Assembly (NCBI GenBank): GCA_963727485.1
Contig: CAVSGM010000001.1
Span: forward strand, 544,001 to 608,000
DNA length: 64,000 bases
Direction of reading: 5' to 3'
DNA from: an uncultured delta proteobacterium
Lineage (GTDB): Bacteria > Myxococcota > Myxococcia > SLRQ01
Positions 59,396 to 63,312 of this stretch are shown here, one piece after another. The notes under the pieces were generated by a model, which was not told where the DNA came from, ran no database searches, and saw nothing but the letters and a program-made list of their open reading frames with translations. How positions within the stretch are numbered: position 1 is the first letter of the stretch; each line of letters starts with the position of its first letter. The position numbers and the translations under genes are program-made.

Positions 59396-60262
59396 ATGAA
59401 GAAGGTTACCATCCAGACCCTCAGGCAGATGAAGCAGGCGGGCGACAAGGTCGTCATGGTCACCGCCTACGACGCCACCTTCGCCCGCATCCTCGACGAC
59501 GGCGGCGCCGACGTCCTGCTGGTCGGCGACTCCCTGGGCAACGTGATCCAGGGGCAGGACTCCACCCTCCCGGTCACCGTCGACCACATCGTCTACCACA
59601 CGGCCGCGGTGCGCCGGGGGACGAAGCGGGCGCACCTGGTCGCCGACATGCCCTTCATGAGCTACCAGGCCTCGGTCGACGAGGCGGTGAAGAACGCCGG
59701 CCGGCTCATGGCCGAGGGCGGCGCCGAGTCGGTGAAGCTCGAGGGCGGCGCCGAGTACGCCGAGGTGGTCTCGCGCATCGTCCGCGCCGGGATCCCGGTG
59801 ATGGGCCACCTCGGCCTCACCCCCCAGTCGGTCCACGCCCTCGGAGGCTACGTGGTCCAGGGGAAGACCGACGCCGCCGCCGAGAAGCTCCTCGCCGACG
59901 CGCAGGCCCTCGAGGCCGCCGGGATCTACGCCCTGGTCCTCGAGGCGGTGCCCACCGAGGTCGCCCAGAAGGTCACCGAGGCCCTCTCGGTGCCCACCAT
60001 CGGCATCGGCGCCGGGGTGGGCTGCGACGGCCAGGTGCTGGTCTGCTACGACCTGTTCGGCTTCAACCCCGACTTCAAGCCCAAGTTCGTCAAGCGCTTC
60101 GCCGACGGCTACCAGACCCTCCGGGGCGCGGTGGAGACCTACGCCGCCGAGGTCCGGGGCGGCACCTTCCCCGACGACGCCCACAGCTTCCACAAGCCCC
60201 AGGCGGTGCGGGCGGTGGAGGACGACCCGGGGAAGCTGTACGGGAGCGTCGCCGGGAAGTGA
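59396..60262 (+). CDS. panB: 3-methyl-2-oxobutanoate hydroxymethyltransferase
   Basis: [36 protein letters not shown]. Confidence 0.97.
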
Positions 60263-61201
60263 CCGCGCCGCGCGTCATCGAGACCCGGGCCGGGATCGCC
60301 GCCGCCTGCGCCGAGGCCCACCGGGCCGGACGCACGGTGGCGCTGGTCCCCACCATGGGCTTCCTCCACGACGGCCACGCCGCCCTGATGAAGGCGGCGC
60401 GGCCGCGTGCCGAGGTGCTGGTGGCGACCATCTTCGTGAACCCCACCCAGTTCGGGGCCGGCGAGGATCTCGATCGCTATCCGCGCGACCTCGAGGGCGA
60501 CCTCGCGGTGTGCGCGCCGGGAGGGCGTGGATCTCGTGTTCGCCCCGCCGGATCCCGCCGAGATGTACCCGGAGGGGTTCCAGACCTGGGTGGAGGTCGA
60601 GGAGACGACGAAGCACCTGTGCGGCGCCCGGCGGCCCGGCCACTTCCGGGGGGTGACCACCGTGGTCACCAAGCTCTTCAACCTGGTGCGCCCGGAGGTC
60701 GCGGTCTTCGGCGAGAAGGACTTCCAGCAGCTGGTGACCCTGAAGACCATGGCCCGGGACCTCGACATGGGCATCGAGGTCGTCGGGGTGCCCACGGTGC
60801 GCGAGGCCGACGGGCTGGCGCGGTCGTCGCGCAACGCCTACCTCGACGCCTCGGCTCGCGAGCGGGCGCTGGGCATCGTGCGCGGCCTCCGGGCGGCCCA
60901 GGCGGCGTTCGCCGACGGGGAGCGGCGCGCCGGCGCCCTGCGCGCGGTGGTTCTCGAGTCCGTGTCCGGCGGCGCCGACGAGATCGACTACGTGGAGCTC
61001 GCGGATCCGGTGACTCTGGCGCCCCTGGCGGCGGACGCCGAGTGTGGGGCCGAGACCCGGGCGCTGGTGGCGGCGTTCTTCGACAGCGCCGGCGGCCGCA
61101 CCCGCCTCATCGACAACGCGGCCCTCGGAGACACGAGCTCCATCGGTGGGGCCGCGGTTGACCCGCGTCCCGCGGGCGCGTCCCGGGGGGGCGCCCGATG
61201 A
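60259..61201 (+). CDS. panC: Pantoate-beta-alanine ligase, frameshift near 60520
   Basis: [19 protein letters not shown]; second frame [28 protein letters not shown]. Confidence 0.92.
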
Positions 61202-61671
61202 GCAAGGAGAAGCCAGGCGCCCCGAAGGGGCGGGTGGTGGCGCGCAACAAGGAGGCGCGCCGCCGCTGGGAGATCTCCGACACCCTGGAGGCGGGCCTGG
61301 AGCTCACCGGCACCGAGGTGAAGGCCATCCGCGACGGCAAGGTGCAGCTCGCCGACAGCTACGCCGTGGTCAAGGGCGACCGAATCTTCCTCCTCAATCT
61401 CCACATCGGCCCCTACGCGCCCGCCGGACCCTACGCCCAGCACCAGCCGACGCGGACCCGGCGCCTGCTGCTCAAGCGCGCCCAGATTGAGAAGCTCATC
61501 GGCCAGATGGCCCAGAAGGGCTACAGCCTGGTGCCCCTCGACGTGCACTTCCGCGGCGCCTGGGCCAAGGTCGAGCTCGGTCTCGCCCGCGGCAAGAAGA
61601 CCGAGGACCGCCGCGAGGAGATCAAGAAGCGCACCGCCGACCGCGAGATGGCGCGGGCGTTCAAGCGCTGA
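61198..61671 (+). CDS. smpB: SsrA-binding protein
   Basis: EAGLELTGTEVKAIR, HIGPY, RTRRLLL, ARGKK..DRRE. Confidence 0.95.
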   Translation: MSKEKPGAPKGRVVARNKEARRRWEISDTLEAGLELTGTEVKAIRDGKVQLADSYAVVKGDRIFLLNLHIGPYAPAGPYAQHQPTRTRRLLLKRAQIEKLIGQMAQKGYSLVPLDVHFRGAWAKVELGLARGKKTEDRREEIKKRTADREMARAFKR

Positions 61672-61690
61672 GCGGGCGGGCTGGGGACGC

Positions 61691-62006
61691 GGACGCCGGG
61701 TGATGCGGACGCCGGGTGATGCGGACGCCGGGTGATGCGGACGCCGGGTGATGCGGACGCCGGGTGATGCGGACGCCGGGTGATGCGGACGCCGGGTGAT
61801 GCGGACGCCGGGTGATGCGGACGCCGGGTGATGCGGACGCCGGGTGATGCGGACGCCGGGTGATGCGGACGCCGGGTGATGCGGACGCCGGGTGATGCGG
61901 ACGCCGGGTGATGCGGACGCCGGGTGATGCGGACGCCGGGTGATGCGGACGCCGGGTGATGCGGACGCCGGGTGATGCGGACGCCGGGTGATGCGGACGC
62001 CGGGTG
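61691..62006. repeat. Perfect tandem array of 16-bp unit GGACGCCGGGTGATGC (19 full copies + 12-bp partial)
   Basis: Read directly; no spacers or variant units seen; last partial copy forms hairpin CCGGGT-GTCAG-ACCCGG (62000-62016). Confidence 0.97.
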
Positions 62007-62064
62007 TCAGACCCGGATTGTAGAATCAGTGCTCAATCAGGTTGGGACCGATCGGGGGAATTCG

Positions 62065-62808
62065 ATGTCACGTCAGCAGCCGAAGCCGAAGCCGAAGCCG
62101 AAGCCGCACTCGCACTCGTCTCGACGCACGCGCAGCGCCCGTCGCTCATCGGGTGGCCGCAAGCAGCTCGAGCTGGAGCTGCGGACGTGGGGCGGTCGCC
62201 GGCGGGGCGCCGGCCGCAAGCCCGCCGGCGACCGGTCGGGCGTGTCCCACCGCCGCCGCCAGGCCGTCGCCTCCAGTCACCCTGTCCACGTCACCCTGCG
62301 CGTGCGCCGGCACGTGTGGAACCTGCGGGCCCGCCGGTGTCGGCGGATCCTCGAGGCGGCCTTCGCCTCGGCCCGCGAGCGGAACGGTCTGCGGCTGGTC
62401 CACTACTCCATCCAGGGCAACCACGTGCACCTGCTGGTCGAGGCCCGGGGTCGCGAGGCCCTCGCCCGCGGCGTCCAGGGGCTCTCGGTGCGCATCGCGC
62501 GGGGGCTCAACCGGCTGATGTCCGCCCGAGGCAAGGTGCTCTCGGACCGCTACCACGCCCACGTGCTCCGTACCCCCAAGGAGGTGCGCCACGCCCTGCG
62601 CTACGTCCTGCGCAATGCCGATCGGCACGGCCTCCGGTGGCGGACCGGACCCCGGGGGCCGAAGGTGGATCCCTGCTCCTCCGGGCGCTGGTTCGACGGG
62701 TGGAAAGGCGATCTGGAGCCCGAGTCCTCGCCCCGGCCGGTGTCTCCGCCCGGCACCTGGCTGCTTCGGGTGGGCTGGCGCCGCCACGGTCTGCTGCCCC
62801 TCGCGTGA
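62065..62808 (+). mobile_element. REP-associated tyrosine transposase (RAYT)/IS200-like Y1 HUH nuclease
   Basis: PVHVTLR, HYSIQGNHVHLLVE (HUH), DRYHAHVL, RYVLRN (catalytic Tyr); basic N-terminus WGGRRRGAGRKP. Confidence 0.88.
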
Positions 62809-62840
62809 CGGGGTCCCCTTGCGTGACGGGGTCCCCTGCG
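62803..62840. repeat. Two direct copies of GCGTGACGGGGTCCCCT
   Basis: Read directly; overlaps the RAYT stop codon. Confidence 0.85.
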
Positions 62841-62894
62841 CAACCGGGAGCCCGGCCCTTGCCAGGTGTCCTTCGCCCAGGTGCCATTCGGCAT

Positions 62895-62967
62895 CGCTCG
62901 GCCGTGCCAAACGGCGAGCGTGGCCGTGCCAAACGGCGAGCGTGGCCGTGCCAAACGGCGAGCATGG
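62895..62967. repeat. Three tandem 22-bp palindromic REP-like units GGCCGTGCCAAACGGCGAGC(G/A)T
   Basis: Each unit holds hairpin GCCGT-GCCAA-ACGGC. Confidence 0.9.
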
Positions 62968-62991
62968 CGCTTGCCGCCCCGGCCGACTCGC

Positions 62992-63312
62992 CTAGGTGCC
63001 CTTGAGCCCCCCGTGCTCCGGGCACGGGCACAGCTCCCGCAGGAACTCGAAGGTATAGATCCCGGTGTCGTGCCCGTCGGAGAACTTGAAGCCGATGGCG
63101 TACCCGCCGACCAGCGTCATGTCGGTCACGGCCGCGTCGAGGCCGTCGTGGAACACGTGGCCGCCACCGTGGCCCTGACAGCCGGCGCAGGGGCAGTGGC
63201 CCCGCAGGTAGCGCATGGGGTAGCGCGAGACGTGGCCGTCGCTCCAGGTGATCTGGACCTCCTGGCGGCCGCGCTCGGCGACGACGTCCTTGGGCTTCAC
63301 CAGCTCGCTCAT
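62992..63312 (-). CDS. DUF971 (GBBH-like N-terminal) protein
   Basis: ITWSDGH..YLRGHCPCAGC, VGGYA..FSDGHDTGIYTF. Confidence 0.9.
   Translation of the reverse strand: MSELVKPKDVVAERGRQEVQITWSDGHVSRYPMRYLRGHCPCAGCQGHGGGHVFHDGLDAAVTDMTLVGGYAIGFKFSDGHDTGIYTFEFLRELCPCPEHGGLKGT

Follow-up and report, generated by a model that had tools for sequence, protein, structure and literature searches.

A RAYT-like Y1 nuclease subfamily likely recruited into the PafBC regulon of one Myxococcota lineage

Introduction

RAYTs bind and cut single-stranded DNA (ssDNA) at REP hairpins, and REP/BIME clusters usually flank them. Y1 enzymes are recognised by a single tyrosine followed, four residues further, by a metal ligand (PMC6006769). 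Tandem REPIN clusters and REP arrays, some of them adjoining RAYT genes, have been described (PMC3116915, PMC3733652), and rolling amplification of BIMEs was proposed earlier (10.1101/2024.07.17.603846). Why hosts keep RAYT-type genes, and when the enzymes act, are treated as open questions in PMC6006769 and PMC5581495.

The PafBC activator is associated with the consensus tGTCgg(N10)tA(N3)T, the GTC triplet of which is read by R46 and R50 of PafB (PMC8635444). In Myxococcus xanthus, pafBC and PafBC-binding sequences have been noted and a PafBC regulon was proposed, with such a sequence at 24 of 51 genes (PMC9705874), so the regulon itself is not new; a WYL pair is up after mitomycin C (PMC12288472). 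The nearest regulatory precedent for the genes described below is the LexA control of ISCR HUH transposases (PMC13393415). In Xre-RES systems of the ParST/MbcTA type, palindromes lie in pairs over the antitoxin promoter, an arrangement that fits a 4:2 complex with two DNA-binding dimers (PMC12204516).

The DNA analysed here, called the window, is a stretch of 64,000 nucleotides from an uncultured delta proteobacterium of the Myxococcota (GCA_963727485.1, contig CAVSGM010000001.1, positions 544,001 to 608,000). A first-pass annotation had proposed that a Y1 HUH gene in this stretch encodes a RAYT variant that makes head-to-tail arrays at its own locus rather than dispersed REP doublets. Judging from sequence comparisons, the gene likely belongs to a RAYT-like subfamily that a single lineage of the Myxococcota brought under its PafBC regulon, and the tandem repeats that flank it most likely arose from older motifs by local slippage.

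The locus and its repeats

The focal Y1 gene lies between smpB and a DUF971 gene, which are convergent around it (Table 1). This placement, already given in the first-pass annotation, is confirmed by Pfam matches of both neighbours (PF01668, PF06155). The same annotation called the gene "lone", which is correct locally, where no tnpB adjoins it, and incorrect genome-wide, where seven more loci of the family exist. The perfect 16-bp array upstream and both downstream repeats are present as described, and a fourth repeat, an AGCCGA run inside the Y1 ORF, had been overlooked. A search of the focal locus for a sigma-70 promoter, a terminator and an Rfam RNA found none.

Table 1. Features of the smpB–DUF971 interval and its surroundings, in window coordinates.
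Feature	Position	Strand	Remarks
smpB, left host gene	61198..61671	+	PF01668, E 2e-52; insert starts past its stop codon
16-bp tandem array	61689..62006	+	19.9 copies, 100% match
Predicted PafBC-type (RecA-NDp) promoter	62005..62026	+	-26 box TGTCAG, 10-nt spacer, -10 box TAGAAT
Motif C variant (YGC-N2-4-WTCAA)	62030..62040	+	By-eye variant, unmatched by pattern
RAYT-like Y1 HUH nuclease gene, 247 aa	62065..62808	+	Pfam Y1_Tnp, PF01797
In-frame AGCCGA run coding PKPKPKP	62078..62106	+	4.8 copies
18-bp duplication across stop codon	62797..62837	+	2.3 copies, 95% match
22-bp repeat	62900..62968		3.1 copies, 97% match
Four GCCR-NN-YGGC palindromic half-sites	62882..62968	.	At 62883, 62906, 62928 and 62950
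DUF971/GBBH-like N-terminal gene, right host gene	62992..63312	-	PF06155, E 2e-24

Across the whole genome, 1842 intergenic gaps of 80–1500 bp were tested, and the 16-bp array exceeds every other exact tandem repeat in them in length. A genome-wide count found the 16-, 18- and 22-bp units nowhere else in its 5.55 Mb. The 18-mer, confined to the focal locus, is a local duplication; one paralog is followed by a stretch that resembles it in part.

A 46-nt piece of the 16-bp array is found with zero differences in short-read contigs of runs X2, X3 and X4, as is a 52-nt piece of the 22-bp repeat in those of runs X1, X2 and X3. These lengths (46 = 16 + 30, 52 = 22 + 30) would be expected of a tandem cycle in a 31-mer graph. 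Since both units also occur in short-read contigs, the arrays are not long-read artefacts, and an origin in assembly was rejected. Short-read depth ratios (20.4, 7.8 and 2.1 against about 2–3.6) are too noisy for copy number, and none of the short-read contigs covering the locus contains an empty-site junction. The AGCCGA run is probably variable in copy number; one X2 contig of depth 2.6 has a 12-letter gap over it, a single contig that may be an error. Elsewhere, panC (named by eye, window 60259–61201) is broken across two frames near 60510 and recA (G000 C1:180930–181891) is likewise broken across frames, both probably as a result of assembly indels.

The insertion site in relatives

In all four same-family relatives compared (G001–G004), smpB adjoins the DUF971 gene with no Y1 gene in between. 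The two genes are convergent and separated by a few to about 30 bp in G002 and G003, and DUF971 follows smpB in the same orientation in G001 and G004. These junctions have no arrays either, and a search of the four genomes for a close family member gave none (best E 3e-8). The gene and the arrays therefore arrived in the focal lineage, and the present arrangement probably goes back to a RAYT-like Y1 HUH gene that was inserted long ago into the smpB–DUF971 junction. At the Y1-free junction of G004, a two-copy repeat of about 53 bp with a word like motif C (see below) lies just 3' of smpB (L140).

The protein and its paralogs

The focal protein contains the HUH motif NHVH (H120-V-H122), whose histidines are invariant across 60 homologs (there numbered H85/H87), a catalytic tyrosine (Y180) conserved in at least 90% of them, and an invariant metal ligand (N184). 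It matches Pfam Y1_Tnp (PF01797) with 27 bits, above the cut-off of 23. The N-terminus is basic (WGGxRxGAGRK), the C-terminal end of the AF2 model (pLDDT 87.5) consists of two short helices, and no HTH domain of Pfam matches the protein. The best Foldseek match of the model is E. coli TnpA-REP (PDB 4ER8, E 4.9e-6), with an alignment of 170 columns versus about 105–147 for most IS200 TnpA chains; a sequence search of the PDB gave only matches of E ≥ 0.67. The NCBIfam model NF047646, matched by all 60 homologs (best E 5e-14), scores 43.8–44.2 bits, which is below its cut-off of 80.

Class 2 RAYTs (TnpA-REP, 4ER8; PMC6006769) resemble the family in combining HUH with a single Tyr and a downstream Asn, in fold (the best match), in their divergent, vertically kept paralogs and in the nearby REPIN-like inverted doublets, some of them tandem. 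Unlike class 2, where the motif is Y---NP, the family has YVLRN[AH] (YVLRNA in the focal protein, NA or NH in all seven paralogs) and scores 44 bits with NF047646, whose cut-off is 80. The WGGxRxGAGRK N-terminus, the 7–20 copies per genome and the predicted PafBC-type promoter are further differences, and the associated repeats, about 18 in number, are without a GT[AG]G foot. The protein would act much as a RAYT does, but as several features of class 2 are lacking, it is not filed as a canonical RAYT. With subclass 2.1 (Group 1 RAYT/TIRYT), as outlined in PMC6006769, PMC5581495 and PMC3733652, it shares a W motif without Trp, an SS motif after the Tyr helix, several divergent copies per genome and a weak tie to abundant repeats, but it has no C-terminal HTH, no terminal inverted repeats and another Y motif.

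The genome encodes seven paralogs with a complete core, the focal one included, and one internally deleted copy. The seven are 59–82% identical, fall into two clades and all carry NH[VL]H and Y[VL]LxN[AH]. Their coding sequences are under purifying selection, with dN/dS of 0.14–0.46 at a synonymous divergence of 0.46–0.91 (simple counting method), and two paralogs have near-orthologs in other assemblies (P0003, P0004). Their identities, dN/dS values and near-orthologs therefore mark them as old, retained paralogs and not as an active IS.

Copies at unrelated sites (seven or eight here and about 20 in G009), absence from the four same-family relatives and a motif C that is kept beside the start codon in many lineages could also be produced by a still-mobile IS-like element of the IS200 or TIRtron type, which would copy itself together with its promoter and have family A, family B or motif C as its ends. 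Such mobility is very unlikely. No two copies are near-identical (the closest pair agrees at 82% of amino acids and 85% of nucleotides), individual paralogs have the near-orthologs just mentioned, and the NCBIfam model NF033573 scores 18, below its cut-off of 55. The flanks lack terminal inverted repeats: among the 25 longest pairs listed none brackets the gene, and these are chance pairs, 71–86% complementary. Unlike IS200/IS605 TnpA, the family has neither a Y---Q motif nor near-identical copies nor tnpB.

Myxococcota records supply most of the homologs, which number at least 6842 proteins at E ≤ 1e-5 if more distant relatives are counted. The roughly 20 divergent members of this Y1 subfamily in G009 (L292–L307, L082, L095 and L104 among them) have a conserved upstream motif of their own and no PafBC box. 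At about 6 of 63 homolog loci (L009, L016, L030, L031, L039 and L048), a divergent ORF starting MPWK runs on the minus strand within 250 bp of the Y1 gene, and related IS-end fragments are present upstream of several others; we take this ORF to resemble an IS481-family transposase.

A PafBC-type promoter at all seven paralogs

Alignment of the paralog flanks revealed TGTCAGACCC-N6-TAGA[AC]T at all seven genes. Both boxes and the exact 10-nt spacing are kept at 7/7 despite diverged spacers and flanks, and ACCC after the box is common to the paralogs. The -35 position matches TTGACA at two or fewer of six bases at all seven, i.e. there is no sigma-70 -35 box. The strict form TGTCRG-N10-TANNNT has 15 sites in the genome at spacer 10, compared to 0–4 at spacers 6–9 and 11–15. 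Of these 15, seven precede the seven intact paralogs, and the others precede recA, a RecA-domain imuA-like gene, an Lhr helicase, a UPF0270 gene, an orphan module and three further ORFs. The bipartite motif and its spacing, the targets recA, imuA-like and lhr, and the PafB arginines are all features of the PafBC/RecA-NDp regulon (PMC8635444). What is particular here is that about half of the strict sites (7/15) precede RAYT-like Y1 nuclease genes.

Two PafB–PafC pairs are encoded in the genome. Their PafBs are 37% identical, the one tested matches the solved PafBC structure (E 1e-33), and neither PafB-like protein has lost the arginines that correspond to R46/R50. To judge from these motifs and residues, PafBC would drive transcription of the paralogs, which stand behind the promoter motif of recA and are therefore likely switched on by DNA damage. 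LexA control was rejected, since no LexA box (consensus from PMC9705874, at most two mismatches) lies within 200 bp of the seven paralog promoters; one is present at recA. SOS-controlled ISCR HUH transposases (PMC13393415) are similar in that an HUH gene is tied to the DNA-damage response, but ISCR genes are LexA-repressed and belong to mobile rolling-circle elements, whereas the genes described here have no LexA box, are predicted to be PafBC-activated and appear to be domesticated.

The recA gene has two tandem promoters (G000 C1:180770–180910; L312), one sigma-70-like, which is overlapped by a Myxococcus-type LexA box, and one PafBC-type. At G000 C11:159520–159950 (L313), downstream of a WYL-domain gene, a Y1-type promoter and a family-B module are found with no gene behind them.

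The focal copy of the motif, TGTCAG-N10-TAGAAT, overlaps an upstream hairpin to which the first-pass annotation had ascribed a design shared with a hairpin downstream. Each of the two hairpins can be drawn, but the upstream one is weak (-6.7 kcal/mol, z -1.4), and 20 of 200 shuffles fold equally well. Its 6-bp stem around the GTCAG loop exists only at the focal locus, the six other paralogs having 1–3 bp. The shared design was rejected because the upstream stem is unconserved at paralogs and folds like shuffles; the resemblance is a coincidence between a promoter box on one side and a paired operator-like palindrome on the other.

In the relatives, a relaxed form of the motif precedes recA at 27 of the 30 loci examined (from 30 of 40 relatives) and the strict form at 13 of 30, with 0–1 at other spacers. 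The exceptions (G001, G011 and G020) are exactly those genomes, three of 41, in which no PafC HTH scores above cut-off, which makes 27/27 PafC-positive versus 0/3 PafC-negative recA promoters; as kin are not independent, this match should be read as a pattern rather than as a test statistic. Relatives generally have the spacer-10 excess, e.g. 22–35 versus 0–4 in nine genomes of genus g13. The homolog loci of other genomes do not have the motif (0/63, 0/13 and 0/17), even where PafC and the motif excess are both present, and many of them carry, by eye, sigma-70-like promoters (TTGAC/TTGC-N17-TATTC). The PafBC-type promoter is thus lineage-specific and not a family trait, and, as it is limited to one lineage, some of its conservation could be due to the common ancestry of the paralogs.

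This ancestry could be all there is to the promoter, which would then have been captured once and inherited with no selected role by a Y1 family that is neutral or decaying slowly. Such a passenger would be missing from the 93 valid homolog loci of other genomes, would drag along extra bases such as ACCC, a sign of common descent, and would leave behind remnants such as the internally deleted copy and the gene-less promoter module. We nevertheless consider it improbable: the boxes and the 10-nt spacer are intact at all seven genes while synonymous sites have diverged to 0.46–0.91, and selection maintains the coding sequences.

Family A and the origin of the 16-bp array

Family A is a set of low-copy REPIN-like inverted doublets, about 67 bp long, that fold as a 22-pair hairpin. 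Its profile matches at E ≤ 1 are all intergenic and define 18 regions; the elements cover 0.03% of the genome. A search of 40 relatives returned only short, chance-level matches. The arms, which begin GTGATG and are without the canonical GT[AG]G foot, are found upstream of three of the six other paralogs. Covariation is seen at 2 of the 22 pairs, and several members form tandem clusters with periods of 203, 224 and 229 bp. Being lineage-specific, dispersed intergenically and present beside those three paralogs, family A is a low-copy candidate for the cognate repeat. Dispersed REP-like doublets thus exist in this genome, contrary to the proposal that arrays take their place.

Matches of a 19-nt span of the 16-bp array fall inside family-A elements in 3 of 4 cases (two or fewer mismatches) or 7 of 10 cases (three or fewer) genome-wide; the rotation of this span was chosen, and other rotations give 0–1. 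The family-A profile search did not match the array itself. On the strength of the span matches, the 16-bp unit is most likely a left arm of family A that was amplified. The 16-mer is bounded by GGTG direct repeats and its last copy is fused to the promoter box. The overlap of the arm's terminal GTG with the -26 box suggests a deletion that fused a family-A arm and the promoter.

Tandem repeats are present in 6 of the 18 family-A regions versus 1.08 expected (Poisson P about 9e-4), an enrichment that is optimistic because the profile was built from nine picked members, some of them inside arrays. Among the non-focal Y1 flanks of this genome, 2 of 11 have tandem repeats versus 0.46 expected, other intergenic VNTRs occur in 59 of 1829 gaps, and both intergenic arrays with the highest copy numbers (19.9 x 16 bp and 9.7 x 9 bp) stand upstream of a Y1 gene; the intergenic and gene calls for these counts, for the 1842 gaps above and for the homolog flanks below are from a codon-score caller that misses some genes. 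Plain slippage leaves the family-A enrichment and the position of the two top arrays unexplained. GC skew was uninformative as to replication strand bias. Two other arrays were noted in passing, one of 110 bp x3 beside a tRNA-like sequence and a family-A arm (G000 C11:298717–299062), the other of 127 bp x4 with no family-A match (G000 C1:105817–106344).

A RAYT variant that builds head-to-tail arrays through repeated strand transfer or rolling-circle copying of its hairpin targets, whether beside its own gene or at sites of family A, could leave such an enrichment, place the longest arrays before Y1 genes, draw its 16-bp unit from a family-A arm and be matched by array-free empty sites in relatives. 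The flanks of homologs speak against it. Of 113 such flanks, 6 carry exact tandem repeats, compared with 1 of the 81 gaps used as controls (p=0.24); repeats of at least three copies are found at 2 of the 113, and tandem arrays at 1 of 17 further G009 copies. Homologs thus mostly lack flanking repeats, which is the outcome that the first-pass annotation had itself named first as counting against its model. Arrays are not a family trait, the array-making RAYT is poorly supported, and we rate this explanation as unlikely. The RAYT-like nature of the protein (best fold 4ER8), the lack of arrays in relatives without the gene, the probable derivation of the 16-bp unit from a REP-like arm and the tandem-repeat enrichment at REPIN-like sites agree with the original proposal; the specialty of building arrays is given up. 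Nicking possibly contributes to local amplification, which would not be a new family trait.

Family B, the 22-bp repeat and motif C

Family B consists of GCCR-NN-YGGC palindromes that come in pairs, 21 of them spaced at 23 bp and seven at 22 bp, with 0–4 at other spacings and no GT[AG]G foot. Such a pair is present at all seven paralogs, in six of them 4–20 bp upstream of the -26 box and at the focal gene downstream of it. The 22-mer contains a family-B half-site, and the focal site is a 23-bp-spaced pair with its second half duplicated. The pattern has 44 strand-hits in this genome and 0–6 in each relative. One pair overlaps the ATG of the only Xre/ParS gene of the genome, which belongs to an Xre-RES operon, and the same is true in G009. 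Of 118 family-B pairs in metagenomes, 12 (11 of 49 at GC ≥ 0.5) have a homolog of the Xre/ParS antitoxin, usually with the pair at the start of that gene, and 106 are without an Xre homolog in the surrounding DNA examined; 12 of the 118 are arrays of three or more sites.

The idea that family B is a Y1-specific REPIN was rejected. None of the 118 metagenome pairs has a Y1 homolog in the surrounding DNA examined, the two cores are not consistently complementary, and all three in-gene pairs tested align to orthologs without an insertion. The insertion-free in-gene pairs and the sites at Xre starts therefore show family B behaving like a protein-binding site pair. Its half-sites are predicted operator-type binding sites, for which we infer a binder. 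They resemble Xre-RES (ParST/MbcTA-type) operators (PMC12204516) in their paired palindromes over the antitoxin promoter, but unlike these, about 20 further pairs are found away from the operon, eight of them beside Y1 genes. The main text of PMC12204516 contains no TGCCA-NN-TGGCA pair (no TGCC string).

Family-B pairs inside genes are located at G000 C2:612003, C2:649017, C2:1303629, C2:1106761 and C2:1701751, in hosts that by eye are leuA-like, SNF2-like, hypA-like, glycoside-hydrolase-like and unnamed. Three in-gene pairs use rare codons. The in-gene sequences suggest that these pairs may be under selection as predicted binding sites. Family-B arrays with a period of 22–24 bp also occur on unrelated metagenome contigs (L175, L181, L183, L184, L185, L189, L202, L212, L244 and L254), and by eye one array precedes a dnaK-like ORF (L180) and another an hspR-like ORF (L281).

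Motif C is located just 5' of the start codon family-wide. Its loose form is found at 63 of 92 loci, compared with a mean of 9 in shuffles and 29 in a distal window, and its strict form at 30 of 92 versus 4. As a marker of the subfamily it was rejected, because genomes that have no close member contain it too (six in G030, four in G001). Two copies, 39 bp apart, lie inside a transposase-like coding region (G000 C4:87972 and C4:88011).

Discussion

Taking the comparisons together, we think it probable that the paralogs are domesticated RAYT-like ssDNA nucleases that are induced by PafBC on DNA damage and act on family-A hairpins, and that the arrays are derived by slippage. DNA damage would activate PafBC and have the seven paralogs expressed from their PafBC-type promoters, and the enzyme, like RAYTs at REPs, would nick ssDNA at the hairpins of family A (about 18 intergenic sites) and rejoin it. 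At the focal locus, a deletion would have joined a family-A arm to the promoter via the common GTG, the GGTG..GGTG-bounded 16-mer would then have been amplified by replication slippage, and the 22-mer would be the duplicated half of a 23-bp operator-like pair. The least certain step is that the single Xre-RES complex binds family-B pairs and could damp the Y1 promoters. Points that count against this explanation are the presence of family-B pairs in coding genes, their near-restriction to this genome, and the low copy number, little covariation and missing GT[AG]G foot of family A.

A further possibility, which we regard as doubtful, is that the seven HUH nucleases are co-induced by ssDNA via PafBC, gated by the toxin-antitoxin system, nick family A and promote tandem amplification.

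No RAYT, and no such member, is described as being under PafBC control in the openly accessible main texts searched. The main text of PMC6006769 mentions neither myxobacteria nor promoters; its supplements may list members of the subfamily.

Taken alone, the tandem arrays hold modest interest. The finding points to a large unclassified Y1 subfamily (the at least 6842 proteins above, distant relatives included), and the recA promoters (27/27 vs 0/3) support, on comparative grounds, a PafBC regulon that spans the myxobacteria as a class. Seven paralogs with the PafBC-type promoter of recA offer, for one lineage, a testable answer to when RAYT-type enzymes act and why they are kept: their activity would be tied to ssDNA stress, an inducing condition that also supplies the substrate of the enzyme. 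If the doubtful reading with co-induction, gating and amplification is true, RAYTs would gain a defined inducing signal and a host-level role, and the lineage would have a stress-triggered route to repeat and genome variation.
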